The position numbers and the translations under genes were made by a program. DNA of 64,000 bases from a virus. Below are positions 1 through 13,172 of the stretch, piece after piece. Numbering within the stretch: position 1 is the stretch's first letter; every line of letters starts with the position of its first letter. The stretch is taken from IMG/VR virus record IMGVR_UViG_3300036770_005778, positions 11,032 through 75,031 of that record, one strand, 5' to 3'. The notes below the pieces were generated by a model, which was not told where the DNA came from, did no database searches, and saw only the letters and a program-made list of their open reading frames with translations.

Positions 1-29
1 TGCCCAGAGTTCCCGCCCACCTTTTTTGG

Positions 30-58: not shown

Positions 59-85
59 AGATACATACAGTAAGGAGAGCGAGCA

Positions 86-1300: not shown

Positions 1301-1311
1301 GTGCCGGGGGC

Positions 1312-1329
1312 TGTGGCTTTTTTGCAACA
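1312..1329. repeat. TGTNGC-N6-GCAACA quasi-palindrome, candidate operator
   Basis: TGTGGC-TTTTTT-GCAACA; related copies at 6435, 6860 and 7276. Confidence 0.5.
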
Positions 1330-1359
1330 GGCCCCGCTGTTATACGTGTGCGTACAGAG

Positions 1360-1388
1360 TTGACAAAAGACTTATCCGATCGTATAAT
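1360..1388 (+). promoter_or_regulatory. sigma70-type early promoter
   Basis: TTGACA-N17-TATAAT; GGAGCG RBS downstream. Confidence 0.9.
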
Positions 1389-1420
1389 ATAGATACTGAG
1401 AAACAACTTAGGAGCGAGCA

Positions 1421-1690
1421 ATGAATGATCTAAGAAACATCCTAGTAGACATCCGCAACGGTGATTTCAACAATGATGATCTTAACCTGATCATCGAGGC
1501 CGTCAAGTTCAAGCGAGCACAGAATGCCCGCAAGGCTGCGAATACTCTTAGGATCGGTGAGCAGGTCACGTTCAACGGTAAGAACGGTCCTGTGGTAGGA
1601 CGTCTTGAGCAGATCAAGATCAAAAAGGCCATCGTGGTCAGTGGTATGACCCGTTGGAATGTTCCACTGGCAATGTTGGAGGCTGTATAA
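1421..1690 (+). CDS. hypothetical early protein
   Basis: Promoter + AGGAGCG RBS; 89 aa ORF. Confidence 0.8.
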   Translation: MNDLRNILVDIRNGDFNNDDLNLIIEAVKFKRAQNARKAANTLRIGEQVTFNGKNGPVVGRLEQIKIKKAIVVSGMTRWNVPLAMLEAV

Positions 1691-1818
1691 TGCAACTACT
1701 GATTGGGTTTATCCTAGGAGTCGTGGTGTCTACGATCGGATTCTCGGGCGTGGCCTATTACGCCGATCAAGGCGTCAACAAGATCAAAGAAATCACACAA
1801 GAGGCGACTAACAAATGA
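1690..1818 (+). CDS. small membrane protein (42 aa, not in ORF track)
   Basis: MQLLIGFILGVVVSTIGFSGVAYYADQG...; TAATG overlap upstream, ATGA overlap downstream. Confidence 0.7.
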   Translation: MQLLIGFILGVVVSTIGFSGVAYYADQGVNKIKEITQEATNK

Positions 1819-1994
1819 GCATCATGAAAGACCTAGCCTATGATATCGAACAGATGTGGATCGAAGGATATCGTCCGATCACGATCGCAGGTCTGCTCGA
1901 TTGCCACGTAGACCTAGTCTACGATTGGATCGAGTCCAACAACCTGAGTGCCGACGAGGCTTCGTATGACCCGCACGACACCATCAACTCCTAA
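1815..1994 (+). CDS. small acidic hypothetical protein (59 aa, not in ORF track)
   Basis: MSIMKDLAYDIEQMWIEG...; coupled via ATGA. Confidence 0.7.
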   Translation: MSIMKDLAYDIEQMWIEGYRPITIAGLLDCHVDLVYDWIESNNLSADEASYDPHDTINS

Positions 1995-2074
1995 CCGCGA
2001 TCCTGCGCCGGCAGACGACTCATACGAACTGCCCCCGCATACAGATTAAGAATTGTTCTTGTTGCGCTCCCTTT

Positions 2075-2102
2075 GACCCTGCTCGCATCAGGGTCTTTTT
2101 TT
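2075..2102 (+). terminator. rho-independent terminator
   Basis: GACCCTG-loop-CAGGGTC followed by T-run. Confidence 0.8.
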
Positions 2103-2104
2103 GG

Positions 2105-2133
2105 TTGACAATTGGGTGCTCTGGCTGTAGAAT
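2105..2133 (+). promoter_or_regulatory. sigma70-type early promoter
   Basis: TTGACA-N17-TAGAAT. Confidence 0.85.
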
Positions 2134-2160
2134 AGAGATACTGGATAACAAGGAGCGGCT

Positions 2161-2361
2161 ATGGGCTACACGGTATTCGAGCGGGATGTGAACTACGGAC
2201 CACGTAACGGACTGGAAGGACCCTTCCACTATCCAAACGGGCAGGTCCTGTACTATGATCCCAAAGCGGGCGAGTACTGGGATCCAACCACGGACTTCTA
2301 CGTGCCCAACGAAGATGTGGCTCGTTTGCAACAGACGATCTTCGACTCAATCCGTGGTTGA
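2161..2361 (+). CDS. hypothetical early protein
   Basis: AAGGAGCG RBS; stop TGA lies within the next TTGACA. Confidence 0.8.
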   Translation: MGYTVFERDVNYGPRNGLEGPFHYPNGQVLYYDPKAGEYWDPTTDFYVPNEDVARLQQTIFDSIRG

Positions 2362-2386
2362 CAATTGGACGATTTGGCTGTAGAAT
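2358..2386 (+). promoter_or_regulatory. sigma70-type early promoter
   Basis: TTGACA-N17-TAGAAT. Confidence 0.85.
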
Positions 2387-2420
2387 TATGATACTGGGAA
2401 AACAAAACAAGGAGCGAAAG

Positions 2421-2768
2421 ATGACTGCAACATTCGATACCGTAAAAGTGCAAATGGCCCACGCATTGGCCCTGCATGAAGCCAAACACGCCGCGTATGG
2501 CTTCGCCCATAAGCACATGGGTGGCAAGGATGGCGGACCCTGCGGATTTGCCTGGGTCAACATCTACAAGGTCAGGAAGAACTCCAAACTGGGAAAGGCC
2601 TTGGAGGCAGTAGGGTTCCGTAAATCCTACGATGGCAGTTTCCAACTCTGGAACAAGTGGTGGCCAGGGCAGAGCGTGGATGCGGCCGATGCTGGTGCGT
2701 GTGCCTATGCAGAGACCATGCGCAGAGAATTAGGTCTGGACTTCTACGCAGGTAGCAGGCTGGACTAA
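2421..2768 (+). CDS. hypothetical early protein
   Basis: Start moved to ATG 2421 after AAGGAGCG; contains CGFAWV motif and ends SRLD. Confidence 0.8.
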   Translation: MTATFDTVKVQMAHALALHEAKHAAYGFAHKHMGGKDGGPCGFAWVNIYKVRKNSKLGKALEAVGFRKSYDGSFQLWNKWWPGQSVDAADAGACAYAETMRRELGLDFYAGSRLD

Positions 2769-2830
2769 GTCCCAGGTTGATCGCTGGGCCAGGGTGGGCG
2801 AGCAACCCCCGCCCTGTTAGAACAAATTGG

Positions 2831-2859
2831 TTGACAATTGGACGGTCTGGGCTTATACT
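2831..2859 (+). promoter_or_regulatory. sigma70-type early promoter
   Basis: TTGACA-N17-TATACT. Confidence 0.85.
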
Positions 2860-2889
2860 GTAGGTATAGTGAAAGACAAGGAGCGCGAA

Positions 2890-3138
2890 ATGCAGACAGA
2901 AAAAGAAAAGGTAGTAGGCGCCCTGCGGGGTTGGGAATTCATCCGTGAGCGCCACGGTAGCCTGTTTGATCGCGGCAGTGCCGATTCCTACTACGGTCGG
3001 GCACCTGATCCGCACTACGGTGGCGTTGGTGGCGACAGTGGGATCCGTGTCAAGGTTATGTACACAGAAGCCGTGGCAGAATACATGGCGGGCTACGAGG
3101 ACAACGAGAAGTTCGGTCACAAGAAGGACTACGCCTAA
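2890..3138 (+). CDS. hypothetical early protein
   Basis: Start ATG 2890 after AAGGAGCG. Confidence 0.8.
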   Translation: MQTEKEKVVGALRGWEFIRERHGSLFDRGSADSYYGRAPDPHYGGVGGDSGIRVKVMYTEAVAEYMAGYEDNEKFGHKKDYA

Positions 3139-3485
3139 TGGAAGCGGTCCGTGAGATCACTGCTTGGGATGTAGAGTACCGACAGCCCAATCACATCTAC
3201 CTGCTAGACGGGGACCGTGTTAAGGCCTACATCAAGTGGGGCGAAGGTCCGGTAGAATGGCTGTCAGGAAAGGTCAAGATTGATCGCCGTGGCCGTAAGT
3301 TCGAGAAAGCAGACATTGGTCTGTTCGAAGTTAAAGAAGCAAAGGATCCTGTGATCTTGGAAGTGCCTGGTAGCAAGGGTGCGACCTACTATGTGAACAC
3401 AGAAACTGGGACCTGCACCTGCCCTGGATTCACTTTCCGTGGTGCCTGTAAACACACAAAGGAGTTAGAACTTGAAGACTACTGA
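3138..3485 (+). CDS. SWIM zinc-finger protein
   Basis: C-terminal CTCPGFTFRGACKH = CxC...CxH SWIM motif. Confidence 0.75.
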   Translation: MEAVREITAWDVEYRQPNHIYLLDGDRVKAYIKWGEGPVEWLSGKVKIDRRGRKFEKADIGLFEVKEAKDPVILEVPGSKGATYYVNTETGTCTCPGFTFRGACKHTKELELEDY

Positions 3486-3591
3486 TCAAGAATACGCGAG
3501 ATGGGTTTGGACTACTACGGGCCGTATGTTCCTACAGGCCGTGGCGATCTACGGTGGGCTGTTAGGTGCCTATTGGGTGCTAGTAGGATGA
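3472..3591 (+). CDS. small membrane protein (39 aa, TTG start; not in ORF track)
   Basis: AAGGAG 5' of TTG; MKTTDQEYARWVWTTTGRMFLQAVAIYGGLLGAYWVLVG; ATGA overlap with next gene. Confidence 0.55.
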   Translation: MKTTDQEYARWVWTTTGRMFLQAVAIYGGLLGAYWVLVG

Positions 3592-3836
3592 TCGACCAGT
3601 TCCTTTGGTTCTGCCTGCCTGAGGAGGACAAGAGGTTCTTAGAACCATACAGATCCCCTAAGACCGAGACCAGCCTGTTCAAATGGATACCTGTGGCAGA
3701 AAAGCCACGAGCACGGGATCTCTGCTTGAAACTGGGGCTGCGTGTCCGGGTAGTCTACAGAGGGCCTAGGAAGCGGTGGGCAGCTCACACGGCCCAAGAA
3801 GATGCTACCCATTTCACGGTCTATCCAATCGGTTGA
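3588..3836 (+). CDS. hypothetical protein
   Basis: Start ATG 3588 by ATGA coupling; stop within next TTGACA. Confidence 0.65.
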   Translation: MIDQFLWFCLPEEDKRFLEPYRSPKTETSLFKWIPVAEKPRARDLCLKLGLRVRVVYRGPRKRWAAHTAQEDATHFTVYPIG

Positions 3837-3861
3837 CAATTGGCGGGTTTGGCCGTATAAT
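3833..3861 (+). promoter_or_regulatory. sigma70-type early promoter
   Basis: TTGACA-N17-TATAAT. Confidence 0.9.
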
Positions 3862-3891
3862 GTAAGTATAGTGAAAAACAAGGAGCGAAAA

Positions 3892-4158
3892 ATGACATCA
3901 GCACAATCCAAATTCAACGCATATCTAGACGAATGCCGTGAAACCCGAGAGGCTTTGGGTGCCTTTGAGAAGGCAGTCCACGAAAAGTATGATGGTTCGG
4001 GCTACGCCTATATCGCAGGCTACATGATGACCCAACTACAGGATGCTATCACCCACTTGCCCAAAGCCAAACGGGCAGAGTTCCGTGAGACTTTCCTCCG
4101 TGCAGCCAAGAAGTTCGAGCAAGAGAACCTCATGAAGATGATCAAGGAGACTGCATGA
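3892..4158 (+). CDS. hypothetical early protein
   Basis: Start ATG 3892 after AAGGAGCG. Confidence 0.8.
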   Translation: MTSAQSKFNAYLDECRETREALGAFEKAVHEKYDGSGYAYIAGYMMTQLQDAITHLPKAKRAEFRETFLRAAKKFEQENLMKMIKETA

Positions 4159-4343
4159 TCACCAACATCAACTATCTGAAGACAGCCATAGGAGTCCTCG
4201 AACAAGGGCAGACTCCTATGACGGAAGCCAAGATCCTTAAGATCATGCGGGATATCTGCGAGATGAACATCCAGCGGATCGAGCAGAATTTGGTTGACAA
4301 AGTAGAAGATCGGTTGTATAATAAAGATACAGTAAACGAATAG
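4155..4343 (+). CDS. hypothetical protein
   Basis: AAGGAG RBS, ATGA overlap. Confidence 0.65.
   Translation: MITNINYLKTAIGVLEQGQTPMTEAKILKIMRDICEMNIQRIEQNLVDKVEDRLYNKDTVNE
4294..4322 (+). promoter_or_regulatory. sigma70-type early promoter
   Basis: TTGACA-N17-TATAAT inside upstream ORF. Confidence 0.85.
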
Positions 4344-4352
4344 GAGCGAACT

Positions 4353-4469
4353 ATGGAATTTGAAGATCTGTTTGATGATGTAGACGAAACTGTGATAGAT
4401 GAAGATCTAGACATCGACGAAGCAGTAGATATCCTCTACGATGCGATCTATGGAGACGACAATGCCTAA
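4353..4469 (+). CDS. very acidic 38-aa peptide (not in ORF track)
   Basis: Promoter + AGGAGCG RBS; MEFEDLFDDVDETVIDEDLDIDEAVDILYDAIYGDDNA. Confidence 0.75.
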   Translation: MEFEDLFDDVDETVIDEDLDIDEAVDILYDAIYGDDNA

Positions 4470-5085
4470 TTGGTGCTCGAATTACATTTCCGTGCGCGGT
4501 CGTAGACAAGAGGCCGTGCAGAAGTTGGCGGATGCCTTTGATGCAGGTGAATTCTGCAATGCAGTGATCCCCTGTCCAGAAGATCTACTGCGTGATGGCA
4601 GTAGCACCCACGGCGGTCCTAACGCAGATGCCTACGACCAGATCCGTGCAGAGAACAAGGCCAAACACGGCTACGACAACTGGTATGACTTCAATGTGGC
4701 CAATTGGGGAACCAAATGGGACATCACTGTCAGTTCAGAGTGCGAGCGTGACGAAGACGGATTGAGTTTCAGCGGACAGTTCGACACAGCCTGGTCGCCA
4801 CCTATGGGCATCGTAGAGCGATTGACCCAGCAGGGCTACGATGTCACCCTCTACTACTACGAGCCGGGCATGGGCTTTGTAGGCAAGTATGAGGACGGTG
4901 TAGATGACTACTATGAACTGTCAGGTTTGGACAGTTCCACCGTGGCGGCCACCATCGGTGACGAATTGGACGACTTCTTTGGCATCTCTGAACAGATGGC
5001 CGAATACGAGTCAGAGCAGGAAGAAGAAGAGCTCACAGAATGGATCAAAGATGGCGCTGACAAGCGTGGATTGGTCACTGTATGA
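4462..5085 (+). CDS. DUF1281/YubB-like (ferredoxin-like fold) phage protein
   Basis: MPNWCSN start, WYDF..NWGTKWD, FDTAWSPP and YYEPGMGFVG motifs. Confidence 0.75.
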   Translation: MPNWCSNYISVRGRRQEAVQKLADAFDAGEFCNAVIPCPEDLLRDGSSTHGGPNADAYDQIRAENKAKHGYDNWYDFNVANWGTKWDITVSSECERDEDGLSFSGQFDTAWSPPMGIVERLTQQGYDVTLYYYEPGMGFVGKYEDGVDDYYELSGLDSSTVAATIGDELDDFFGISEQMAEYESEQEEEELTEWIKDGADKRGLVTV

Positions 5086-5273
5086 GAACTTACCGTTTCC
5101 AATTTGAAGTGATCTGTGCCGGCCAAGGTCGGCCCGATCTCAAGAGAGTCGAAGACATGCTGGATCTCAGCATGCAGGATCTGGTCATGGACGACGAGTT
5201 TGTCGCCGCCCTAGACGAGACGGAAGCGGTGACCATCCAGGTTACGCCGCTGTTTGGTGATACAGATGGTTGA
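5082..5273 (+). CDS. hypothetical protein
   Basis: ATGA coupling; stop within next TTGACA. Confidence 0.7.
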   Translation: MRTYRFQFEVICAGQGRPDLKRVEDMLDLSMQDLVMDDEFVAALDETEAVTIQVTPLFGDTDG

Positions 5274-5298
5274 CATCTGGATTGGTTGAGTATATAAT
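5270..5298 (+). promoter_or_regulatory. sigma70-type promoter
   Basis: TTGACA-N17-TATAAT. Confidence 0.85.
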
Positions 5299-5346
5299 TA
5301 ATATACTTGGTAGTTAGTTAACGCACACACACTTAGGAGATTTAGA

Positions 5347-5661
5347 ATGGCAACTTCAAAGACTTTCGCTGTAGCAGGTGTTTCCACCCACAAAGACGGC
5401 ACCAAGATCCGTTTCGCCAACGATGCGGCTCGCGTCAAGATCTTGATCAAGAACGGACACACGGACATCGAGCTGATCGACCTGCCCCGGGAGATGACCA
5501 AGGCAGAGATCGCCCAATACCTGTTCGAAACCGACTTCGCTAAAGGTCGTGTTGCGGTCATGGACGCGATCAAGGATCTAGCCAAAAAGAACCGTGTGAA
5601 GGCAGTGCCTGAAGTAAGTAAAAGTACCACTGCCGCGAAGGCAGAGGCCGTCGCCCAGTAA
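5347..5661 (+). CDS. hypothetical protein with Lys/Ala-rich C-terminus
   Basis: AGGAG RBS, own promoter and terminator. Confidence 0.8.
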   Translation: MATSKTFAVAGVSTHKDGTKIRFANDAARVKILIKNGHTDIELIDLPREMTKAEIAQYLFETDFAKGRVAVMDAIKDLAKKNRVKAVPEVSKSTTAAKAEAVAQ

Positions 5662-5696
5662 GACCGATTCGCTCCCGGTTTGGGTGACACTTGGGG

Positions 5697-5730
5697 GGCT
5701 GCTTTAACGGGCAGCCCTCTTTTTTTTCTT
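5697..5730 (+). terminator. rho-independent terminator
   Basis: GGGCTGC-loop-GCAGCCC followed by T-run. Confidence 0.8.
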
Positions 5731-5745
5731 CGGAGTAAATACAAG

Positions 5746-6129
5746 ATGATCATCGAATTCCTTATAGTCTTTGCTGTGGGTTTTTGGTTGGGCAGCCTCT
5801 TCCGGGGTGCCTGGATGGCTCTGAGTTTCCGTGAAATCCTCAAGGATCTAGGAGTCACTGATCAGCAACTGCGTAACCTAGCAAAGAAGAATGGCCTAGA
5901 TCTCGATGATCCAGAACCCACTGCTCGAAATGAGAAAGACGATCTTCCGGTGCTAGAAGTCCGCATCGAACAGCATCCAGAAGGCCTGTTCGCATATCGC
6001 AAAGAGGACAACTTCTTTATCGCACAGGGCTCAGACCGCACCACACTGATGGAGAACCTGGTCAACAACCTCACCAACGTCAGGGTCGTGGTAGCCAAAG
6101 AAGACGGGGCTGATCTGATCAACCCCTAG
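5746..6129 (+). CDS. membrane-anchored hypothetical protein
   Basis: Start ATG 5746, 4 nt after TAAATA; N-terminal hydrophobic helix. Confidence 0.7.
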   Translation: MIIEFLIVFAVGFWLGSLFRGAWMALSFREILKDLGVTDQQLRNLAKKNGLDLDDPEPTARNEKDDLPVLEVRIEQHPEGLFAYRKEDNFFIAQGSDRTTLMENLVNNLTNVRVVVAKEDGADLINP

Positions 6130-6132
6130 GCA

Positions 6133-6150
6133 GTTAGTAAGCACTTACTT
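6133..6150. repeat. left boundary palindrome of the TC/CC-free island
   Basis: GTTAGTAAGCACTTACTT; core AGTAAG-CA-CTTACT (6136-6149) is a perfect inverted repeat. Confidence 0.7.
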
Positions 6151-6184
6151 AATCCCGACTACGTTACTACACTATTATAAAAAA

Positions 6185-6250
6185 CACTTGCAAATTGGGC
6201 TGTGTTGCGCTATAATGTTTTTGTGTTAGTTAATAAGCAAATAGGAGCGT
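6185..6250 (+). repeat. 66-bp promoter/RBS cassette, copy 1 (TTGCAA-N17-TATAAT)
   Basis: Matches 6464-6529 with 3 mismatches; -35 at 6188, -10 at 6211. Confidence 0.9.
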
Positions 6251-6253
6251 AAT

Positions 6254-6439
6254 ATGCAACAAGTAAACAATGTTTTAGTAGCACTGCAAACAGCACACGC
6301 AACAGTGCGCATGGCTAAAGACTACGAGCAAGAAGAAGCAGTAAACGACACAGCGTTTGCAATTGTGGAACTACTGCGCACACTGCACGACAACGATTTT
6401 GACATTGCAGATTTAGCACAGCAAGCGTTAGAGATGTAG
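6254..6439 (+). CDS. island gene 1, small acidic proline-free protein
   Basis: Own promoter and AGGAGCG RBS; 61 aa. Confidence 0.8.
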   Translation: MQQVNNVLVALQTAHATVRMAKDYEQEEAVNDTAFAIVELLRTLHDNDFDIADLAQQALEM

Positions 6440-6463
6440 CATAAACGCAACAGCACTACACAG

Positions 6464-6529
6464 CACTTGCAATTTGGGCTGTGTAGTGCTATAATGTTTT
6501 TGTGTTAGTTAATAAGCAAATAGGAGCGT
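6464..6529 (+). repeat. 66-bp promoter/RBS cassette, copy 2; -35 in loop of a 13-bp hairpin
   Basis: TTGCAA 6467, TATAAT 6490; AGCACTACACAGC(6452-6464)/GCTGTGTAGTGCT(6478-6490). Confidence 0.9.
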
Positions 6530-6531
6530 GT

Positions 6532-6864
6532 ATGTTAAAAATTACAAACACTACAGTAGAGCGTGATGAAGAAGAAGGCATGACTTACACGAGCTATGAC
6601 GTAGAAGGCTTTGCTACGCTAGACGGTACGAGCATTTGGGACTACGACTATGCTAAGGAAGGCACACAGGTTAAAGTTACGCACATAGGCGTGACGGAGT
6701 ACGACGACGAAGATTACGGCAAGAGCATTTATGTGACGCACGACAAAGGCTGGGAGATTTACACAGACAGAGGCTTTGAGCAGAGCATTAGTAGTGTGCT
6801 GGGCTTTGACGTTACGTTTACAGAGCAAGGCATGCAAGACGACGAACTTGCGAGCATGGAGTAA
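6532..6864 (+). CDS. island gene 2, strongly acidic proline-free protein
   Basis: Start ATG 6532 after AGGAGCG; 110 aa, about 26 D/E versus 7 K/R. Confidence 0.8.
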   Translation: MLKITNTTVERDEEEGMTYTSYDVEGFATLDGTSIWDYDYAKEGTQVKVTHIGVTEYDDEDYGKSIYVTHDKGWEIYTDRGFEQSISSVLGFDVTFTEQGMQDDELASME

Positions 6865-6875
6865 CTTTTACGCAA

Positions 6876-6914
6876 CACTACGCACTTGACATTTTGGGTG
6901 CGTAGTGCTATAAT
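6876..6914 (+). promoter_or_regulatory. sigma70-type promoter with -35 in loop of a 10-bp hairpin
   Basis: TTGACA 6886-N17-TATAAT 6909; CACTACGCAC(6876-6885)/GTGCGTAGTG(6898-6907). Confidence 0.9.
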
Positions 6915-6942
6915 GCTTACACACTAAACAAACGGAGCGAAT

Positions 6943-7260
6943 ATGCAACTAGCAACTACAAAACAAACACGTAAAATTGTAAGCAACTACTTTAACGGTA
7001 TTAGTTTTAGCGGTAACAGTTGGACAGACAAGTGTGCAGGCGACGAGACTATGCGGCGTGTGGCGTTTAAGATTTGCGGCGGTAGCATGGAAGCAACTAG
7101 GCTAGAAACTATACGCAAAGACTTGCAGGCGCTGTTTATGCTGGCAGGCTTTGCTAACGAAGTTAAAACAACGGACAGCACGAGCAAGCGTGTAGGGCTT
7201 TTGGCATACTGTAGGGACGACAGCGGTTGCTACGTGCGTGTTAAAGCACGGGCAAGTTAG
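6943..7260 (+). CDS. island gene 3, basic proline-free protein
   Basis: GGAGCG RBS; 105 aa; all Ser codons AGY. Confidence 0.8.
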   Translation: MQLATTKQTRKIVSNYFNGISFSGNSWTDKCAGDETMRRVAFKICGGSMEATRLETIRKDLQALFMLAGFANEVKTTDSTSKRVGLLAYCRDDSGCYVRVKARAS

Positions 7261-7271
7261 CACTAACTAAC
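7254..7271. repeat. right boundary palindrome of the TC/CC-free island
   Basis: AAGTTAGCACTAACTAAC; core AGTTAG-CA-CTAACT (7255-7268); reverse complement matches 6133-6150 at 14/18. Confidence 0.7.
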
Positions 7272-7272
7272 A

Positions 7273-7296
7273 GGGTGTTGCGTTTTTGCAACACCC
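7273..7296. repeat. inverted repeat GGGTGTTGC-N6-GCAACACCC
   Basis: 9-bp stem; same TGTNGC-N6-GCAACA core as 1312. Confidence 0.6.
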
Positions 7297-7317
7297 CCCG
7301 GCCCCGCTGCTAGCCGG

Positions 7318-7346
7318 TTGACAATTGGCGGGTTTGGCTGTAGAAT
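7318..7346 (+). promoter_or_regulatory. sigma70-type early promoter
   Basis: TTGACA-N17-TAGAAT. Confidence 0.85.
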
Positions 7347-7375
7347 GTAGTTACAGTGAAACAAAGGAGCGAACT

Positions 7376-7489
7376 ATGTTGAAACTCATCGGAATTGCGG
7401 CAGTAGTGTACGTGGGTTGGATCACCGGCATCATCCAAGCAGCACTTCTAATCACAGCCGCAGGGCTGACTACTGTGGCGGGGCTGTGA
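7376..7489 (+). CDS. 37-aa hydrophobic peptide (not in ORF track)
   Basis: AAGGAGCG RBS; MLKLIGIAAVVYVGWITGIIQAALLITAAGLTTVAGL. Confidence 0.7.
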   Translation: MLKLIGIAAVVYVGWITGIIQAALLITAAGLTTVAGL

Positions 7490-7671
7490 TGTTTGGATTC
7501 AATCATCGAGTAAGCCGCCCAGCGACCAACGAACTCATCGACCTAGCAGAAGGCGGAGTCATCGACTGGGAGTCATTGGCCCGAGATCTGTTGGGCTGGA
7601 TGAGCGAGCACGAAGTCGCAGAGTTCGCCCGACGCAATGACTACATCCGGGAGGAGGACGAGGATGCCTAA
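7489..7671 (+). CDS. small acidic hypothetical protein
   Basis: TGATG coupling; start moved to 7489. Confidence 0.65.
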   Translation: MFGFNHRVSRPATNELIDLAEGGVIDWESLARDLLGWMSEHEVAEFARRNDYIREEDEDA

Positions 7672-7891
7672 GTATGTGTTCGAGCGCACCAGCCTAGTCA
7701 CAGAGACTTTCACCGTGACGGCTGACGACGAGGATCAAGCCCTGGACCTAGTCCGGGACGGTGGGCCTACAGTCAAAGTTGGTCCTATGCAGTGGCAGGA
7801 TTGGTACGATGAGGAATACAGCCTAGATTCAGTAGAAGATGAACTGGTAACGTTCCTAAACTCAAAGGTGAAAGAATGCGCTATTTCCTGA
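7664..7891 (+). CDS. acidic hypothetical protein
   Basis: GGAGG RBS upstream of ATG 7664. Confidence 0.7.
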   Translation: MPKYVFERTSLVTETFTVTADDEDQALDLVRDGGPTVKVGPMQWQDWYDEEYSLDSVEDELVTFLNSKVKECAIS

Positions 7892-8229
7892 TATCGTTTG
7901 ACTGCAACGGCCTGGAGTGCCTGCAGGACATCTCAGAGTTCCATCCCGACAACTGGGACAAGAACCAACTCATGGGCATAATGATGGGCAAGGCCTACAA
8001 GAAGGCGCCCATCCATGCCCAGATCTCGCAGATGGTCATGCGGGCCAAATTCAACCCACAGCGCCACTACGAGATCTACATACAGCAGGCCGATGACGAT
8101 ATCTCAGCCGCAGATTTCGCCAGTGTGTTTAACGACGATCCGCAGTTCTGGGCGGATTACGTCCGTGAGCATCATAGTGTAAAGATATACAGTGATCGCA
8201 TCAAGAAGGGATCTAGGGTCATCGAGTGA
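7876..8229 (+). CDS. hypothetical protein
   Basis: 117 aa ORF in operon. Confidence 0.75.
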   Translation: MRYFLISFDCNGLECLQDISEFHPDNWDKNQLMGIMMGKAYKKAPIHAQISQMVMRAKFNPQRHYEIYIQQADDDISAADFASVFNDDPQFWADYVREHHSVKIYSDRIKKGSRVIE

Positions 8230-8235
8230 TTTTGG

Positions 8236-8264
8236 TTGACAACTCCTTGTTTTGGACCTATAAT
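8236..8264 (+). promoter_or_regulatory. sigma70-type early promoter
   Basis: TTGACA-N17-TATAAT. Confidence 0.9.
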
Positions 8265-8298
8265 AGAAACATAGGATAACAAAACAAGGAGCGACAAA

Positions 8299-8574
8299 AT
8301 GTACTTGGTTTATTCCGTGATAGCAGAACGTGATCACTACGAGGGCGATCGTGTGTATCCTTTGGCAGTGTTCGCAACCCGTGAAGAAGCAGTGGATTAC
8401 GGTGTGGGCTACCTGTTCGATGACGATGGCGATGACCCTCGCATAGGCGTTATGGATTCCGTGCGTGTGGTAGAGTTCGACGGTGCCCTCCCTGCGGTGG
8501 ACCTGTATGCTTACCGCGATGGTCTGGTAGGGCGTGGCGCTGGTGAGTGCGTGATGCGTTTGGCTGTGGCCTAA
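8299..8574 (+). CDS. acidic hypothetical early protein
   Basis: AAGGAGCG RBS. Confidence 0.8.
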   Translation: MYLVYSVIAERDHYEGDRVYPLAVFATREEAVDYGVGYLFDDDGDDPRIGVMDSVRVVEFDGALPAVDLYAYRDGLVGRGAGECVMRLAVA

Positions 8575-8579
8575 TTTGG

Positions 8580-8608
8580 TTGACAATTCCCTAGTTTGGC
8601 AGCATAAT
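8580..8608 (+). promoter_or_regulatory. sigma70-type early promoter
   Basis: TTGACA-N17-CATAAT. Confidence 0.8.
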
Positions 8609-8641
8609 AACAACTGTAGCAAAACACAACAAGGAGCGAAA

Positions 8642-8860
8642 ATGAAAGACATTGCACTGAACGTAGCCAACATAGCCTATAAGACCGTGATTGGCATCAT
8701 CATACTGCCCTTTATCGCAGTGGCTTTTGGCATAACCAAACTGCTGGGCGGCGAGCCCCTCAGCATGGACGACATGGGCGCGGGCTTCATGATCATGTGT
8801 GCCATAGCCATTGGCTTAGCGATCGCTACGGTAGCATTCGGCATAGGATACCTGCTGTAA
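8642..8860 (+). CDS. two-TM membrane protein
   Basis: Start 8642 after AAGGAGCG; two hydrophobic segments. Confidence 0.75.
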   Translation: MKDIALNVANIAYKTVIGIIILPFIAVAFGITKLLGGEPLSMDDMGAGFMIMCAIAIGLAIATVAFGIGYLL

Positions 8861-9081
8861 TGCCGTTAACTGCCCTAAAATGGCTGGGCACTGGGTTTAC
8901 CATACTGGGAGCCCTGCTGACGAGCCTGGGATCATATGATCCTTATAATGTCACAGCATTCAACCTGGGTGCGGTGTTTTGGCTGTGGGCTTCGATCCGT
9001 ATGCGAGATCCAGCGCTGATCACTGTGAACGCAGTGCTGTTGACAATCTATGTGTTTGGCAGTATACTAAGACTACAGTAA
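8860..9081 (+). CDS. three-TM small membrane protein
   Basis: TAATG coupling; hydrophobic throughout. Confidence 0.7.
   Translation: MPLTALKWLGTGFTILGALLTSLGSYDPYNVTAFNLGAVFWLWASIRMRDPALITVNAVLLTIYVFGSILRLQ
9040..9068 (+). promoter_or_regulatory. sigma70-type early promoter
   Basis: TTGACA-N17-TATACT. Confidence 0.8.
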
Positions 9082-9097
9082 ACTAAAGGAGCAAGCA

Positions 9098-9274
9098 ATG
9101 ACTAAACTAGCAATGACATTTATCTTTGGTGGCGTCCTACTGATGTTTGGCGCCGTGGGTGGCATGGAAGATCCTGCCAAAGCAGACTACTTCTTGGAGC
9201 AGTTAGTCATAGCACTGGTGGGCGTGTTCTTTGCCTTCGTGGGCACACGCCTGCTGCCCCAGGAGCAGGTATGA
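9098..9274 (+). CDS. two-TM membrane protein (58 aa, not in ORF track)
   Basis: AAGGAG RBS; MTKLAMTFIFGGVLLMFGAVGG... Confidence 0.7.
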   Translation: MTKLAMTFIFGGVLLMFGAVGGMEDPAKADYFLEQLVIALVGVFFAFVGTRLLPQEQV

Positions 9275-9486
9275 TCACCATACAAGGATTCACAGCCCTG
9301 CAGCGTGACATCGCTGACCGCATATGGGCCATGGACACTGAGCACGAAGTAGAACACTACATACAGAGCATGCCCCGTCGTATGCAGCCACAGGCCCGGG
9401 TAGTGCTCGACATGATCATAGCCACAGAACTAGACTCATACATGGAGATCACGGATGAAGTACGCGATTATCTCTGCAGCCGCTAG
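9271..9486 (+). CDS. hypothetical protein
   Basis: GGAG RBS, ATGA coupling. Confidence 0.7.
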   Translation: MITIQGFTALQRDIADRIWAMDTEHEVEHYIQSMPRRMQPQARVVLDMIIATELDSYMEITDEVRDYLCSR

Positions 9487-9658
9487 CCTAGCGTTACTGC
9501 AAGGCTGCGGTACAGTGCGCGATCACAGAGATGCTGCCTGGGATCCCGCGCCAGGCCGACTGCTGTTCGAACAGATCCCCCCGTGGGATGATCGGGCGCA
9601 TAGGATCTGCTGTGGCCATCTCAGGGAATGCCAGCCTCACCAATCGCCTCGGTGCTGA
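9455..9658 (+). CDS. putative small lipoprotein
   Basis: MKYAIISAAASLALLQG-C signal peptide with lipobox-like Cys. Confidence 0.6.
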   Translation: MKYAIISAAASLALLQGCGTVRDHRDAAWDPAPGRLLFEQIPPWDDRAHRICCGHLRECQPHQSPRC

Positions 9659-9704
9659 GGTCATGGTGGGGTCTATGGTGGCCGACCGGTATACAGCGTA
9701 GCAT

Positions 9705-9722
9705 GTTAGTATGCGCTAACTT
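9705..9722. repeat. third copy of the island-boundary motif
   Basis: GTTAGTATGCGCTAACTT, 15/18 identical to 6133-6150; at the end of the early region. Confidence 0.55.
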
Positions 9723-9827
9723 AGGCTAGTGGTCTAAAATCACCACCCTGAAAATTTAAGTACTCCACCTAAATTTTTTGCGCGGCTGTTTTTTTCCCCT
9801 GCAGGACCCATTTGGGCTACATACTGT

Positions 9828-10682
9828 ATGTCCACACTACACACTTTTGGCTGCTCTATCACACAGGGATTCGCTTTACCGGACCTAGTACGACCTATCA
9901 CTGACCACCATGGACAGCCGCTCACGGGACAGCAGATCCGTGATCTCGATCGACCCATAGATTGGCAAGACATACACGTCTACGAACCCAGCCAATTCGC
10001 TTGGCCTGCTGTGTTAGCCCGACTGCTGGACCTTCCCGTACACAATCATGCACGTCGCGGAGCCTGTTTTAACCAGATCGCTCGACAGTGTGTCCTGGCT
10101 GCTCCCACTATACGATCCCAGGACACAGTCATCGTGATGTGGACCTATCTGAGTAGGATCAGCCTGCAGTGGCCTGCTCGCACCGCAGTACCATTCTGTA
10201 ACCTAGTCGATCCCGCGGGACACGGTTGGCGCACTCTAATCCTAGGTTTTAACAAGTGGTTTGGACTAGATCGTGCTGATCAAACACGTGATGATCGTGT
10301 GTTAAAGTACATACACGACAGCACACGTATCACACATCTAGATCCATTGGGAGTCTACGATAGATACTATAATCATCTAGTTTTACAGATCACGGTCGAC
10401 GGTCTACTGCAGAGCACAGGTGCTCGTGTCATACACCTTTCAGTAGAGCCCGAATCCTATCTTGATCAACTGGAAACTGCAAGGCTAGAACTAGAACCTT
10501 CGCTGCAAGCACCCTATCAAATACCCGATCCTCGCAGTTGGTATACGCTCGACACGGATCATCACAGTTGTCGCGTCATACTAGATCCCTCAATTCCACC
10601 AGCAGAAAATGACATGCATCCCAGCTGCCAGCATCATCAAAACTTCGCTGATCACCTCCGCCGCCTGTATTTTTCTGGCTAG
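9828..10682 (+). CDS. SGNH/GDSL-like hydrolase-fold protein
   Basis: N-terminal FGCSITQG block, C-terminal DMHP (DxH-like). Confidence 0.6.
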   Translation: MSTLHTFGCSITQGFALPDLVRPITDHHGQPLTGQQIRDLDRPIDWQDIHVYEPSQFAWPAVLARLLDLPVHNHARRGACFNQIARQCVLAAPTIRSQDTVIVMWTYLSRISLQWPARTAVPFCNLVDPAGHGWRTLILGFNKWFGLDRADQTRDDRVLKYIHDSTRITHLDPLGVYDRYYNHLVLQITVDGLLQSTGARVIHLSVEPESYLDQLETARLELEPSLQAPYQIPDPRSWYTLDTDHHSCRVILDPSIPPAENDMHPSCQHHQNFADHLRRLYFSG

Positions 10683-10909
10683 TCTTCTAGGATCTGCCAC
10701 TTCGCGCCAGGTTGGCACCAACTCAGCGCGAATAAAGTATATGCTCGATCATCAGTGAACGTGACACTGAGCCTATAGTAAGTGATCCTAGTAGTGTACT
10801 CGAAACCATAGAGATCTCGCCATCGCGCCAGTTCACGATTAAGCACGGAGCATGAGTAGTGTGCGGCCTGCCCACCCGCTCCGGAAGGCAATTTGAATTC
10901 CACATGCAT
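10679..10909 (-). CDS. hypothetical protein
   Basis: TAAATA 6 nt upstream of ATG. Confidence 0.6.
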   Translation of the reverse strand: MHVEFKLPSGAGGQAAHYSCSVLNRELARWRDLYGFEYTTRITYYRLSVTFTDDRAYTLFALSWCQPGAKWQILED

Positions 10910-10933
10910 CACTGTTATTTACATATATACTGT

Positions 10934-11125
10934 ATGAAAACATTTGTGTTACAGTTGCTCACAGCAGTCACGGCCACGGGTTTTATCACATTCACTGTTA
11001 CGCACCTACATCAACCTATGATCGCATGGTCGCTTTGGGCTCTACACTGGATCCTAGCCATTCCCATAGCCTTGGTCACTGTGCGTTACGTCGCACCTTT
11101 TTACAAGCGAGTGTTTGGGCTATGA
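10934..11125 (+). CDS. small two-TM membrane protein
   Basis: MKTFVLQLLTAV...; hydrophobic. Confidence 0.6.
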   Translation: MKTFVLQLLTAVTATGFITFTVTHLHQPMIAWSLWALHWILAIPIALVTVRYVAPFYKRVFGL

Positions 11126-11161
11126 TCGCAGATAAATATTTTCAACAAGGAGCACCATAAC

Positions 11162-11344
11162 ATGGCCAAAACCACCAAAGAAACACAGCAGTTGACTGCC
11201 CAGACCGAGCGTGAAAATCGCGGTCGAGAAGCACAGGGTCGAGCACCTGAACAGCCTCAGCAGTCGCAGGATCCCACGATCAGTACCACGCCTGACAATC
11301 CACAGGTCTACGATGCCAGCCAACACGGACTGCGCCCAGTCTAA
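11162..11344 (+). CDS. small Gln/Thr-rich protein
   Basis: TAAATA and AAGGAG upstream. Confidence 0.65.
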   Translation: MAKTTKETQQLTAQTERENRGREAQGRAPEQPQQSQDPTISTTPDNPQVYDASQHGLRPV

Positions 11345-11353
11345 CTGATCACC

Positions 11354-11785
11354 ATGCTGGCCGCCCAGCAGCAGTTTCTAGCGTTGGTACAGGATCACAG
11401 CCAGCGCACGGGATTTTCAGCACCCGAGGATCTTTTGGCCTATTTGGCTCTGATCCTAGCCGAGCGTCTAGATCGACCCGATTTCATACCTGCGACATTC
11501 GCTGAGCAGTATCTCACGCTGTATGCGGCCTACCATCGCGGCGTCTATCGCGAGTTCGCTGACACCACGCTGATATTCTGCAGTCTCTTGCCCGACTACG
11601 GTCATCGGCGCGGCCTCAACATGGACTACTATGCCACCATGGGCATTTCTACCTACTACACTCTGGGCGATCTAGCCCAGGATCCTAGATTCACGCAGTT
11701 AGGCAATTGGTTCTATCACTGCCAGCGATTTTTAACCAGCCTGCTGCATCCAGATCGCGGGCTAGAGTTGGTGAGATTCAGATAA
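11354..11785 (+). CDS. hypothetical protein
   Basis: 143 aa ORF in operon. Confidence 0.7.
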   Translation: MLAAQQQFLALVQDHSQRTGFSAPEDLLAYLALILAERLDRPDFIPATFAEQYLTLYAAYHRGVYREFADTTLIFCSLLPDYGHRRGLNMDYYATMGISTYYTLGDLAQDPRFTQLGNWFYHCQRFLTSLLHPDRGLELVRFR

Positions 11786-11792
11786 TTACTGG

Positions 11793-12362
11793 ATGTTACA
11801 TGTGGTCGATGATCTACTACAGCCTCAGCATTTTGCCTATGCACAGGCCAAGTTTTCCAGCATAGAAATACCCTGGTTCTATCTGCCCTTTACGGCCAAT
11901 CCACGTGATCTAGATCACTTGCCTGAATATGCGGGATCTTTCAGCCACTTGGTCTACAAAGATGACGAACCTGCCAGCCCTCTGGCCGAAGCAGCCATAC
12001 ACATCTTGATCACGGCCTGCGATCGGCTGGGTCACGATCTAGATCGTGTCATAAGGATACGACTGGGCATGAGCACACGCACACCCCGACAGATACAGCA
12101 CACGCCTCACAAGGATCAGCAGTATCCGCATCGTGCGGCCATATGGTATCCCATCACTGCCTCGGGCGACACCGTGATCTTTGAAGAAACTGCGGTCAGC
12201 CGTCGCTACACTGAATGCTATCGCTGCTCGCCCGTGGCCAATCGTTGGCTGGATTTTCCTGGAGAGCACATGCATGCCAGCACCACACCTGATCAGCACG
12301 AACAGCGCATAGTCCTAAACTTTAACTATACTGTTCGTGGCATGCCCCCGCCCCCGGGCTAG
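11793..12362 (+). CDS. 2OG-Fe(II) oxygenase family protein
   Basis: HKD (HxD)...HAS (distal His)...RIVLNFN pattern. Confidence 0.75.
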   Translation: MLHVVDDLLQPQHFAYAQAKFSSIEIPWFYLPFTANPRDLDHLPEYAGSFSHLVYKDDEPASPLAEAAIHILITACDRLGHDLDRVIRIRLGMSTRTPRQIQHTPHKDQQYPHRAAIWYPITASGDTVIFEETAVSRRYTECYRCSPVANRWLDFPGEHMHASTTPDQHEQRIVLNFNYTVRGMPPPPG

Positions 12363-12370
12363 AAAAAATC

Positions 12371-12431
12371 TCGCGCTGCGCTTCGCGCTGGAATTTTCGC
12401 GCTGGGCTGCGCCCCGGATCGGGGCTAAATA
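12371..12431. repeat. triple TCGCGCTG repeat + GC hairpin + TAAATA
   Basis: TCGCGCTG at 12371, 12383, 12397; GCCCCG-GAT-CGGGGC 12411-12425; TAAATA 12426. Confidence 0.7.
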
Positions 12432-12453
12432 TTTCAGCAACGAGGAGAAGTCT

Positions 12454-12660
12454 ATGAAAGCATGGAAGATCATGGCCCGCAACACACGCACTCACATGCG
12501 CATCCAAAAACAGTTTCTAGACGGCTATGTGATCACTGATCACGCAGTGGCCAACGCAGAAGCACAGCGTTTCGCACAGGCCCAGGCAGATCGCACACGC
12601 GAGCCTTGGGTAGCAGAAGTATCGCAGTACGAAGTAGGCCGTAGACCCAGCCTTCAGTGA
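12454..12660 (+). CDS. hypothetical protein
   Basis: GAGGAG RBS before ATG 12454. Confidence 0.7.
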   Translation: MKAWKIMARNTRTHMRIQKQFLDGYVITDHAVANAEAQRFAQAQADRTREPWVAEVSQYEVGRRPSLQ

Positions 12661-13088: not shown

Positions 13089-13172
13089 GTCAGTGTCGCA
13101 GTATAATGTGTGTATTTAACTCGAGATGGAAAAAAATCCTGCCGATCTCGATGCTGAGATAATTACAAGCAT

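Follow-up and report, generated by a model that had tools for sequence, protein, structure and literature searches.

The window analysed here, a stretch of 64,000 nucleotides of viral DNA (IMG/VR record IMGVR_UViG_3300036770_005778), contains near its beginning an island of three small genes whose coding strand carries neither TC nor CC. These two dinucleotides, a pyrimidine followed by cytosine, are written YC below, and GA and GG are written GR. Every unit of the island comprises a sigma70 promoter of consensus type, a strong ribosome-binding site and a gene for a small, mostly very acidic protein. The features of the locus are as follows.

6136..6149, plus strand: upstream bracketing palindrome AGTAAG-CA-CTTACT, read from the sequence, at the end of the unit of the preceding ordinary gene
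6157..7293, plus strand: YC-free island, without TC or CC on the coding strand (0 against 90-123 expected)
6188..6216, plus strand: promoter P1 (TTGCAA, 17-nt spacer, TATAAT)
6254..6439, plus strand: gene pA, 61 aa, acidic (pI 4.2), proline-free, Shine-Dalgarno sequence (SD) AGGAGCG
6452..6495, plus strand: hairpin with arms 6452-6464 and 6478-6490 and the -35 box of promoter P2 (6467-6472) in its loop
6532..6864, plus strand: gene pB, 110 aa, pI 4.1, proline-free, C-terminus ...TEQGMQDDE.ASME
6876..6914, plus strand: hairpin with arms 6876-6885 and 6898-6907 and the -35 box of promoter P3 in its loop
Within 6876..6914, plus strand: promoter P3 (TTGACA, 17-nt spacer, TATAAT; 12/12 matches)
6943..7260, plus strand: gene pC, 105 aa, basic (pI 9.5), proline-free
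7255..7268, plus strand: downstream bracketing palindrome AGTTAG-CA-CTAACT, overlapping the pC stop codon
7273..7296, plus strand: terminal hairpin GGGTGTTGC / GCAACACCC, local fold about -32 kcal/mol
7297..7310, plus strand: C-rich motif CCCGGCCCCGCTG, directly 3' of the island
7318..7346, plus strand: first ordinary early promoter downstream of the island

The palindrome at 6136..6149 has its counterpart at 7255-7268, a like arrangement being present in the closest relative, L047, and the final YC ahead of the island (6153-6156) sits 3' of the upstream copy. In the A/T-rich stretch upstream of P1 (6157-6187), all seven C residues are preceded by A. The element at 6452..6495 appears, from its sequence, to combine the end of pA with the start of pB, its arms being free of both YC and GR, and the P2 -10 box (6490-6495) is followed by a T-rich tract. 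The three sigma70-like promoters match the consensus at 12/12, 10/12 and 10/12 positions, in agreement with an earlier note on this DNA that had assigned each gene its own sigma70 promoter. The first YC after the island (7294-7295) is held in the descending arm of the terminal hairpin, and the C-rich motif that follows is repeated after the islands of relatives and ahead of another early promoter (1330-1340). The gene at 7376-7489, driven by the promoter at 7318..7346, contains YC at a normal rate.

Direct counting over 6157-7293 gives zero TC and zero CC on the plus strand, as the earlier note had stated, and the YC gap between CC at 6155-6156 and CC at 7294-7295 measures 1139 bp, the longest other YC gap in the window being 89 bp. 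A second such stretch is absent from either strand of the whole 75-kb contig, and the island is thus unique. Ordinary coding DNA contains 8.1 YC per 100 nt; the rate in the flanks predicts 122.7 YC in the island (log10 P(0) = -56) and the base composition of the island itself predicts 89.8 (2000 shuffles, mean 89.7, minimum 70), values that bracket the estimate of roughly one hundred in the earlier note. On the same strand, 68 GA and 54 GG remain, and the exclusion is therefore strand-specific. The ban spans UTRs, intergenic hairpins and all three codon phases, so that both the genes and the DNA between them are covered: the 300 non-coding bases alone would be expected to hold about 32 YC and hold none. 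It also takes priority over protein sequence. Since TC and CC are banned on the message strand, the three encoded proteins (61, 110 and 105 aa) are without proline; serine is encoded by AGC or AGT only, and the codons TTC, ATC, ACC and GCC, favoured by ordinary genes, are unused. All the factual statements of the earlier note, including the absence of proline, the restriction of serine to AGY and the avoidance of TTC and ATC, hold.

Cytosine itself is tolerated, and only C after a pyrimidine is excluded. C still makes up 18.7% of the island, where purines amount to 57.8% and G exceeds C (292 vs 214); AC is enriched 1.65-fold and GC 1.83-fold, CA is enriched too, and TT is enriched 1.48-fold, neither TT nor CT being depleted. 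NAC codons stay preferred, with a GAC:GAT ratio of 264:82. Proline stands at 0% vs 3.2%, and serine is retained at 4.9% through AGY alone; the conserved proline of the sequence HDGPW gives way to T, A, S, G or K, the serine at this position again being coded by AGY. In the non-coding DNA of the island, GR is mildly lower (7.5 vs 10.2 per 100 nt).

The core island protein, pB, served as the marker for finding relatives. Strictly YC-free blocks of 350-2078 bp, on other viral contigs, hold 26 of 63 distinct pB homologues; these 26 contain no YC and the gene cargo of their blocks varies, so that the syntenic islands of variable gene content that the earlier note had proposed looking for do exist. 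Between the window and L047 there are 168 substitutions, about 34 of which would be expected to create a YC; none was observed (P ~2e-17), which shows that selection on the absence of YC is ongoing. Relaxation of the trait has occurred repeatedly among close relatives, with the sister pairs L105/L079, L077/L099 and L100/L120 differing in it; one relative (L066) shows a full GR ban in addition to the YC ban, and some relatives ban the step on both strands. Promoters with at least 11/12 matches lie upstream of 17/25 YC-free pB genes vs 0/22 YC-containing ones, and an SD is present in 21/25 vs 4/22, respectively; judged by these signals, the ban appears to go with stand-alone expression.

The limits of the blocks match those of transcription units. 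Blocks start directly after the terminator of the upstream gene, take in a consensus sigma70 promoter and run on to a terminator stem. In 22 of the 26 islands the block ends inside a stem, mostly in the descending arm of the hairpin that follows the last stop codon, and thus YC returns only once the RNA is finished and in double-stranded form; YC is abundant in the descending arms of the final terminators. All 26 islands, and every internal gene, are YC-free up to the terminal hairpin, the ban holding undiminished over the final 80 nt ahead of terminators. No YC occurs either in the -35/-10 spacer of the first island promoter, which is untranscribed (9/9 cases, against a comparison set of 241 ordinary promoters of which 26% are YC-free in this spacer), and the internal hairpin stems of the island are likewise without YC. 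We infer from the boundaries that RNA, and not exposed DNA, is the thing read.

The proteins themselves gave few clues. For pA, no Pfam or PHROG family match was obtained; the look-alikes of pC are viral and uncharacterised only; and pB was modelled by AlphaFold with a pLDDT of 93, a PDB search with this fold giving nothing above Z 4.6. Searches of Pfam, PHROGs, PDB Foldseek, VIA-align wide, BFVD and ESM Atlas yielded nothing usable on the function of the island proteins. A tblastn search with pB against 50,697 phage records returned no match, and a DNA-level search was likewise without match. Judged by the tail sheath, the most closely related cultured phages are Phosso, Atu_ph07 and PA5oct; pB is absent from all three, and scans of PA5oct and of the initial 400 kb of Phosso revealed no YC-free island.

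A factor present in infected cells must recognise precisely the steps TC and CC. The explanation that we tentatively prefer, as the best available and still short of probable, is that the island encodes first-response messages which escape a factor, probably an endoribonuclease, that reads YC on single-stranded RNA and for which a single hit suffices. The island would be a block of immediate-early transcription units, with every pyrimidine-C step purged from their transcripts, so that a YC-acting factor on single-stranded RNA could not touch them. Such a reader would be a single-hit enzyme, one action of which ruins a message; the best candidate is an endoribonuclease, or otherwise an RNA-marking enzyme, and it may belong to host defence, as a collateral RNase, or to the phage, as a shut-off RNase that is carried in or newly made. 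Ordinary messages would be destroyed, and the few that are YC-free would survive and be translated, their products probably being first-response takeover or anti-defence proteins. The lack of any 3' relaxation fits a cut that leaves a message unprotected or non-stop, and with a patchy reader one would expect the trait to be lost repeatedly, as it has been among close relatives. We know of no YC-specific endoribonuclease, and RNase, HEPN, ART and nuclease domains were not found among 29 early-block proteins, on a contig that represents 21% of the genome. Against an RNA reader count the YC-free promoter spacer and the internal stems, which lack YC though a single-strand reader should tolerate it there; an RNA reader would explain the spacer ban only through read-through transcripts or through concerted evolution with transcribed inner promoter copies. 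The additional GA/GG ban of relatives fits a second reader, of the CmdT type (GA in mRNA) or a GA-cutting one; readers of GA include CmdT, acting on mRNA, and GA-cutting kinds (PMC12945103 table).

Several known systems resemble this arrangement in part. MazF cuts ACA, and ACA-free messages escape it, as in the single-protein-production system; there, as proposed here, total loss of a short cleavage motif protects a message while others are destroyed. Zero tolerance is expected in an escape of this type because one cut suffices, and absence of the motif over the whole transcript, UTRs included, was found in the window and in 26 relatives. Unlike the case of MazF, where the motif is a trinucleotide, the enzyme is known and the examples are engineered or single genes, the motif is here a degenerate dinucleotide and the avoidance is natural and conserved across many phages. 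In animal viruses, CpG is depleted against ZAP, UpA against RNase L and TC against APOBEC3, and the escape from a dinucleotide-reading host factor is similarly written in coding sequence; those depletions are graded and genome-wide, whereas in the island, part of a bacterial virus, the ban is total and limited to a few early genes. The collateral RNases of Cas13 prefer particular dinucleotides, AU, UC, AC and GA (PMC10196884), so that defence RNases can read a mere dinucleotide on single-stranded RNA, UC and GA being classes banned here or in relatives; these are, however, preferences and not strict specificities, and CC is outside the set. In the CmdTAC system, CmdT ADP-ribosylates the A of GA in single-stranded mRNA (PMC11618068), and one dinucleotide mark on mRNA blocks translation of a phage message, in the manner supposed here. 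CmdT reads GA, however, and the island mRNA of the window, with its 68 GA and 54 GG, is not depleted in GA; CmdT could bear only on the extra GA/GG ban of relatives.

The main rival, which we consider unlikely, is that YC-free transcripts give Rho no hold, so that the first genes would be transcribed fully before coupling or before a phage anti-terminator acts. Rho is, to our knowledge, the only known factor of exactly this specificity; it is nearly universal, which suits a trait spread over many phages and habitats, and it limits the early transcription of lambda and T4. Rho has six clefts, and 5'-YC is the ligand of these PBS clefts (Bogden 1999; Skordalakes & Berger 2003, as cited in PMC12360218), and E. 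coli Rho recognises at most six CC or UC dinucleotides (PMC13323073), a specificity that matches the banned dinucleotides exactly. The constraint tracks the coding strand and transcription units, depletion of the Rho ligand on the coding strand is complete (0 YC in 1137 nt, purines 57.8%), and a very C-rich patch follows directly after several islands. Bacterial genes evade Rho through coding-strand composition, termed 'purine bias' (Nat Microbiol 2026, PMC13323073), which, like the ban, is a cis property that removes the ligand of an RNA-reading factor, UC and CC in both cases, and without which foreign or recoded genes are silenced. Purine bias is, however, a genome-wide shift of a few per cent, whereas the ban is absolute, local (1-2 kb) and overrides amino-acid composition. 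Rho requires several YC within about 80 nt, B. subtilis genes escape with a mild purine bias, and an absolute ban over 1-2 kb that sacrifices conserved proline far exceeds what avoidance of Rho needs. Completion of a transcript cannot depend on a YC within ~80 nt of its terminator, yet the 26 islands and the internal genes remain purged there (26/26 YC-free to the hairpin). Total C shows no reduction, and both AC and CA are enriched; according to a review (PMC12360218), Rho-bound rut segments favour A and C. Repeated relaxation among close relatives would be odd for a universal essential factor, and neither the extra GA/GG ban of relatives nor the ban in the promoter spacer is explained by Rho.

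The mechanism preferred in the earlier note, a bulky modification of virion DNA at GA/GG (or at the C of TC/CC) that would leave the template of the island unmodified and readable first by the host polymerase, appears improbable. A modification at every site would account for zero tolerance, for template-strand specificity and for the tolerance of sites within the last terminator; the extension of the ban into untranscribed promoter DNA, and its occurrence on both strands in some relatives, could have the same cause. The genome also encodes two 2OG-Fe(II) oxygenases. Adjacent early genes with the same promoter type, however, have normal GA/GG on the template, so that the polymerase must read a modified template anyway; most -35 boxes of the islands are TTGACA or TTGACG, which contain GA; and the island promoter spacers are GA/GG-rich on the plus strand. 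Phage CAjan carries the 7-deazaguanine preQ0 modification at GA and GGC, and resembles the present case in its dinucleotide-scale DNA context, G followed by a purine; CAjan-type modification is not known to produce modification-free gene islands, and the system needs an enzyme of the DpdA/TGT family. The dpdA and hmC-type genes that the earlier note had suggested looking for were not found in 11 related records (about 1.8 Mb in total, including five strict-island contigs that are 38-72% complete): PF01702 (TGT/DpdA) is absent from G000-G010, all but G004 being fragments, with a control positive in 14/14 genomes, and the thymidylate-synthase/hydroxymethylase (PF00303) and C5-methyltransferase families are also missing. 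These records contain one N4/N6 methyltransferase only, and the search for QueC gave marginal PP-loop matches (22.9 bits in G004 and 16.2 bits in G005). Had all strict-island phages carried a modification gene, incompleteness would have hidden it in every one of them with a probability of about 0.5-1.5%. The wider idea of an early-gene escape thus survives as regards separately promoted early-type genes and a dinucleotide reader, and not as regards virion-DNA modification. It is also quite doubtful that the ban protects the displaced non-template strand, during intense transcription, from a YC-specific enzyme of single-stranded DNA, candidates being a nuclease like T4 endonuclease IV (T^C), an APOBEC- or SsdA-like deaminase or a DarT2-type ADP-ribosyltransferase. 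T4 EndoIV reportedly cuts single-stranded DNA 5' of dC with TC preferred (Hirano et al. 2006), and such an enzyme would fit the pattern of strand and transcription units. The descending arms of the final terminators are nevertheless YC-rich, although transcribed and exposed on the non-template strand; nearby strongly promoted early genes are not purged, and the promoter spacer is purged although not melted. No DenB homologue was found, a single-sequence query with T4 DenB, which has no Pfam model, giving no match in G000 or G002-G005, and DarT2 modifies T in TNTC/TCTN of single-stranded DNA (PMC12945103), a reading that does not include CC. The alternative raised in the earlier note, a purging of targets on an exposed strand, therefore comes nearer to the RNA-level reading adopted here, but the boundaries indicate RNA, and UV dimers and DarT, two of the agents it named, do not fit. 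A mutational footprint, in which repeated C-to-U deamination at YC on an exposed strand eroded the sites, could be seen in the enrichment of TT; it is very improbable, and largely refuted by the replacement spectrum, proline having given way to Thr, Ala, Ser (AGY), Gly or Lys (CCN to RCN and others) and not to Leu or Phe, as an APOBEC-like footprint (TT/CT, Pro to Ser/Leu/Phe) would have it. The enrichment of RC and the preference for NAC codons are contrary to deamination, erosion cannot hit exactly zero in dozens of islands against protein constraint, and none of the 168 substitutions created a YC.

Other causes were considered and set aside. UV (6-4) photoproducts do not agree with purging of the non-template strand or with undepleted TT and CT, and UV dimers together with DarT meet the same undepleted TT/CT and the fact that CC is no DarT2 target. 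Oxidation of template-strand guanine at GG/GA has a lesion rate far too low for zero tolerance. Avoidance of CRISPR PAMs (CC, TTC, NGG) is contradicted by the persistence of PAMs of the opposite strand (54 GG, 68 GA), avoidance of restriction sites by the strand-specific, non-palindromic pattern, and a cause at the level of codons or tRNAs by the presence of the ban in all three phases and in non-coding DNA.

Motif avoidance as an escape from a sequence-reading factor is a known strategy, but an absolute, strand-specific ban of two dinucleotides was not described in the literature searched, least of all one that strips whole proteins of proline and persists across dozens of diverged phages. 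The ban constitutes a clean bioinformatic signature of a strong YC reader in infected cells. With the RNA-level reading we can envisage, as a reasonable possibility that does not reach an even chance, that an undescribed activity, widespread among infected bacteria, cleaves or marks single-stranded RNA wherever a pyrimidine precedes C, that some hosts have a second one directed at G-purine, and that a clade of jumbo phages answers with 'stealth' messages. The YC activity would be a host defence or a phage shut-off enzyme, and a large clade of uncultured jumbo phages would write its first-response genes in a reduced nucleotide and amino-acid alphabet. If Rho is the reader, the island would be the most extreme case of a recently proposed 'hidden code' of Rho avoidance, and evidence that phages depend on first genes that are proof against Rho; a nuclease or RNA-marking enzyme as the reader would represent a new defence or shut-off activity. 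Whichever the reader, recoding a 300-nt gene with and without YC would put the question to a direct test. Small acidic proteins of the islands also stand out as candidate first-response factors, among them a family of more than 3500 members whose fold is confidently predicted and unmatched. If the proposal is true, identifying the reader would uncover a new level of conflict between phage and host and provide a recoding rule for messages able to survive the reader.

The island (window 6157-7293) is confirmed: it has no counterpart elsewhere in its genome, it is conserved, and selection on it is active. On the coding (+) strand, TC and CC (together YC) are absent between a CC at 6155-6156 and a CC at 7294-7295, a gap of 1139 bp; the second-longest YC gap in the window is 89 bp, and no other gap on either strand of the whole 75-kb contig, an IMG/VR virus record with a CheckV completeness estimate of 21%, is comparable. 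From the base composition of the island itself 89.8 YC would be expected and none was observed, while 2000 shuffles of the island averaged 89.7 and never fell below 70. Scaling from the flanking early region instead predicts 122.7 YC (log10 P about -56), and about 32 are expected in the 300 non-coding bases alone. That strand has plenty of GA (68) and GG (54), which makes the rule strand-specific. The factual statements of the earlier note on the island, checked for dinucleotide counts, ORF composition and promoters, were all correct.

What is excluded is C after a pyrimidine, and not cytosine as such. AC is enriched 1.65-fold and GC 1.83-fold in the island, the GAC:GAT ratio is 264:82, and AAC, CAC, TAC, GGC and AGC are still preferred codons; in ordinary genes of this DNA, YC runs at 8.1 per 100 nt, and ATC, TTC, GCC and ACC are the favoured codons. 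The exclusion spans all codon phases and non-coding DNA, which rules out codon- or tRNA-level explanations. A simple C-to-T mutational footprint is disfavoured, since CCN is replaced by RCN and not by YTN, and RC is enriched. GA and GG (together GR) are mildly low in the non-coding parts of islands outside ribosome sites (7.5 versus 10.2 per 100 nt in ordinary non-coding DNA) and nearly normal in the coding parts.

The island comprises three genes, pA, pB and pC, and associated elements, with the following window positions:

6254-6439, + strand: ORF of pA, preceded by a sigma70-type promoter (P1, 10/12 matches)
6452-6495, + strand: hairpin-promoter element
6532-6864, + strand: ORF of pB, preceded by a sigma70-type promoter (P2, 10/12 matches)
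6876-6914, + strand: hairpin-promoter element
6943-7260, + strand: ORF of pC, preceded by a sigma70-type promoter (P3, 12/12 matches)
7273-7296, + strand: terminal hairpin, with the first YC in its descending arm

All three ORFs lack proline, encode serine only as AGC or AGT, avoid TTC, ATC, ACC and GCC, and have AGGAGCG- or GGAGCG-type ribosome sites ahead of them on the + strand. P1 and P2 are near-identical. Both hairpin-promoter elements are hairpins of 10-13 bp with the -35 box in the loop; the descending arm forms the promoter spacer, and the -10 box is overlapped by a T-rich tract. Each thus unites one gene's terminator with the following gene's promoter. With genes packed in this way, each terminating hairpin housing the next -35 box, practically all island bases are transcribed. 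Internal hairpin stems of the islands are without YC and GR steps. Islands typically start directly 3' of the terminator hairpin of the preceding ordinary gene, and YC first reappears within a predicted stem for 22 of 26 complete islands, mostly on the descending side of a strong hairpin that directly follows the last stop codon.

Similar palindromes bracket the island (AGTAAG-CA-CTTACT at 6136-6149 and AGTTAG-CA-CTAACT at 7255-7268), and L047, the closest relative of the window, is arranged alike. Island identity to this relative is 85% and that of the flanks only 50-60%, which, with the bracketing palindromes, hints at a mobile or exchangeable cassette. The C-rich motif GGCCCCGCTGT occurs at 1330-1340 and 7300-7310, and also in L047, L048, L062, L069, L109 and other loci of pB homologues; on the early-gene strand it directly follows islands and also precedes ordinary early promoters by 18-30 nt. 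Candidate roles are part of a terminator, a regulatory site or an entry patch for Rho. Base composition changes sharply within the window: the early block (1-14000) has about 50% G+C, and the rest (14000-64000) 33-45%. Two phages (window 4441-5082 and L007:4855-5406) share a conserved DUF1281_C (Api92-like, ferredoxin-like) protein starting with MPNWC, encoded a short way upstream of the island region. Genes for two 2OG-Fe(II) oxygenases lie side by side in the early block, which further contains genes for a MoxR-type AAA ATPase and a DUF2201 metallopeptidase/VWA protein, the ATPase and the VWA protein making up a MoxR-VWA pair; loci listed together for these genes are as follows:

L168:890-2049, - strand
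L168:9919-11001, + strand
window 86-1297, + strand

YC-free islands with variable gene content, which the earlier note had proposed to look for in relatives, were found around pB homologues. The first such loci showed YC-free blocks of 1448, 941, 722 and 654+240 bp. An alignment-based scan obtained 80 of at least 228 pB loci; among 63 distinct pB genes, 26 contain no YC (in YC-free blocks of 350 to 2078 bp), 13 contain few and 24 are normal (11-85 YC). Records scanned whole have one main island each, always on the coding strand; the relative L066 has further islands. The cargo varies: pB recurs, and its neighbours belong to no fewer than 15 further families of small proteins, mostly with a pI close to 4.1. 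The islands of the window and its closest relative differ by 168 substitutions; about 34 YC creations would be expected under neutrality and none was observed (P about 2e-17). YC-free forms are spread widely over the pB tree, with low-YC forms adjoining strict ones, and at least four changes of state are required by well-supported branches. The YC ban goes with stand-alone expression of pB: a promoter of at least 11/12 matches precedes 17/25 YC-free, 8/12 low-YC and 0/22 normal genes, and a Shine-Dalgarno site 21/25 YC-free versus 4/22 normal ones.

The pB family has more than 3500 members, all uncharacterised; its predicted fold is confident (pLDDT 93) and had no match among solved structures in the PDB. 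The proline of its HDGPW motif is conserved in YC-containing homologues and replaced by T, A, S, G or K in YC-free ones, so that the nucleotide rule overrides the protein. Most members of the normal-YC group are AT-rich marine contigs, where pB forms the core of fused proteins that are much longer (reaching about 600 aa) and keep HDGPW; the group's terminase nevertheless places it in the same broad jumbo-phage lineage. For a large share of pB loci, a contig end is only a few kb away (L069, L095, L100, L123, L076, L078, L103, L121, L007 and others); the island region may thus be near a physical genome end or an assembly-breaking repeat. In the complete 400-kb relative G004, tRNA genes for Met, Leu-UAA and Arg-UCU (L010:16149-16227 and 17631-17793) flank a decayed island; the main tRNA cluster lies elsewhere, around 317-322 kb.

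In L066 (IMGVR_UViG_3300025598_000072, 1-2900) about 1.4 kb of the + strand is free of TC/CC and GA/GG alike. ORFs of 115 and 188 aa in this stretch lack P, D, E, G and W, GGAG ribosome sites are absent, and terminators are made of AC, GT, GC and CG steps only. This double ban is followed by about 1.5 kb that is only YC-free, then ordinary DNA and then the pB island, so that the restriction weakens stepwise, with both bans first, then one, then none.

The earlier note had proposed that virion DNA carries a bulky modification at GA/GG (or TC/CC) and that the island keeps one strand unmodified. Nothing was found in support: in up to eleven related records (about 1.8 Mb, including the complete 400-kb relative and five strict-island contigs 38-72% complete), no TGT/DpdA, thymidylate-synthase/hydroxymethylase family or C5 methyltransferase was found, QueC gave marginal matches only, and a single N4/N6 methyltransferase occurred, in G006. 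Nearby early genes share the promoter type, yet have normal GA/GG on the template strand, and the -35 boxes and spacers of the island contain GA and GG themselves. The two 2OG-Fe(II) oxygenases of the contig would leave room for some other chemistry. On balance, strand-specific avoidance of a DNA modification is improbable. Slightly less credit still is due to protection of a displaced DNA strand. T4 endonuclease IV cuts single-stranded DNA at T^C, but a single-sequence search with T4 DenB gave no homologue in five records (G000 and G002-G005), and the terminal stems are transcribed yet YC-rich, which weighs against a reader of that strand. UV photoproducts, guanine oxidation, PAM avoidance and restriction avoidance are out on strand, rate or symmetry grounds.

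A reader of YC at the RNA level is the probable explanation, what probability remains beyond it and the two DNA-level readings belonging to explanations not thought of. This reader is quite possibly a single-hit enzyme, such as an endoribonuclease, which island messages would escape; a cut near the 3' end would leave a non-stop message or remove a protective hairpin. As a nuclease predicts, since a 3' cut harms the message, the YC ban shows no relaxation before the terminator in any island or internal gene. That the reader is Rho, evaded by messages without YC, seems rather unlikely. To terminate, Rho must first occupy about 80 nt of RNA and then catch up with the polymerase; any YC within roughly 80 nt of a terminator therefore comes too late to reduce the amount of full-length message, yet no relaxation is seen there. 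Bacterial genes evade Rho through a modest purine excess (2026 study, PMC13323073), and a total ban over up to 2 kb, with a conserved proline sacrificed, goes far beyond that, although phage populations are huge and can clear even sites that do little harm. On the pB tree, repeated relaxation suits a patchy reader more than a universal, essential one, and Rho leaves the GA/GG ban of L066 unexplained. The main point against a purely RNA-level reading is YC-free promoter DNA: the untranscribed spacer of the first promoter is YC-free in 9/9 islands versus 26% of 241 ordinary promoters (P about 4e-5), and the 30 nt upstream of the -35 box in 5/9 versus 9%. Such spacers could be accounted for by read-through messages, whose YC-free 3' part would remain functional after upstream cleavage, or, P1 and P2 being near-identical, by concerted evolution with inner promoter copies.

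Defence RNases that read dinucleotides, including UC and GA, exist among Cas13 orthologues (PMC10196884). Known nucleic-acid ADP-ribosyltransferases recognize GA in mRNA (CmdT), TNTC/TCTN in single-stranded DNA (DarT2) or G and C without context (ScARP), and none has a specificity matching YC (PMC12945103). The GA/GG ban of L066 would be explicable by a second, GA reader (CmdT or a GA-preferring RNase) or by a DNA-level reader of YC/GR on both strands. The most fitting description of the island itself is a group of messages, probably the first to be expressed, that are spelled without the pyrimidine-C step.
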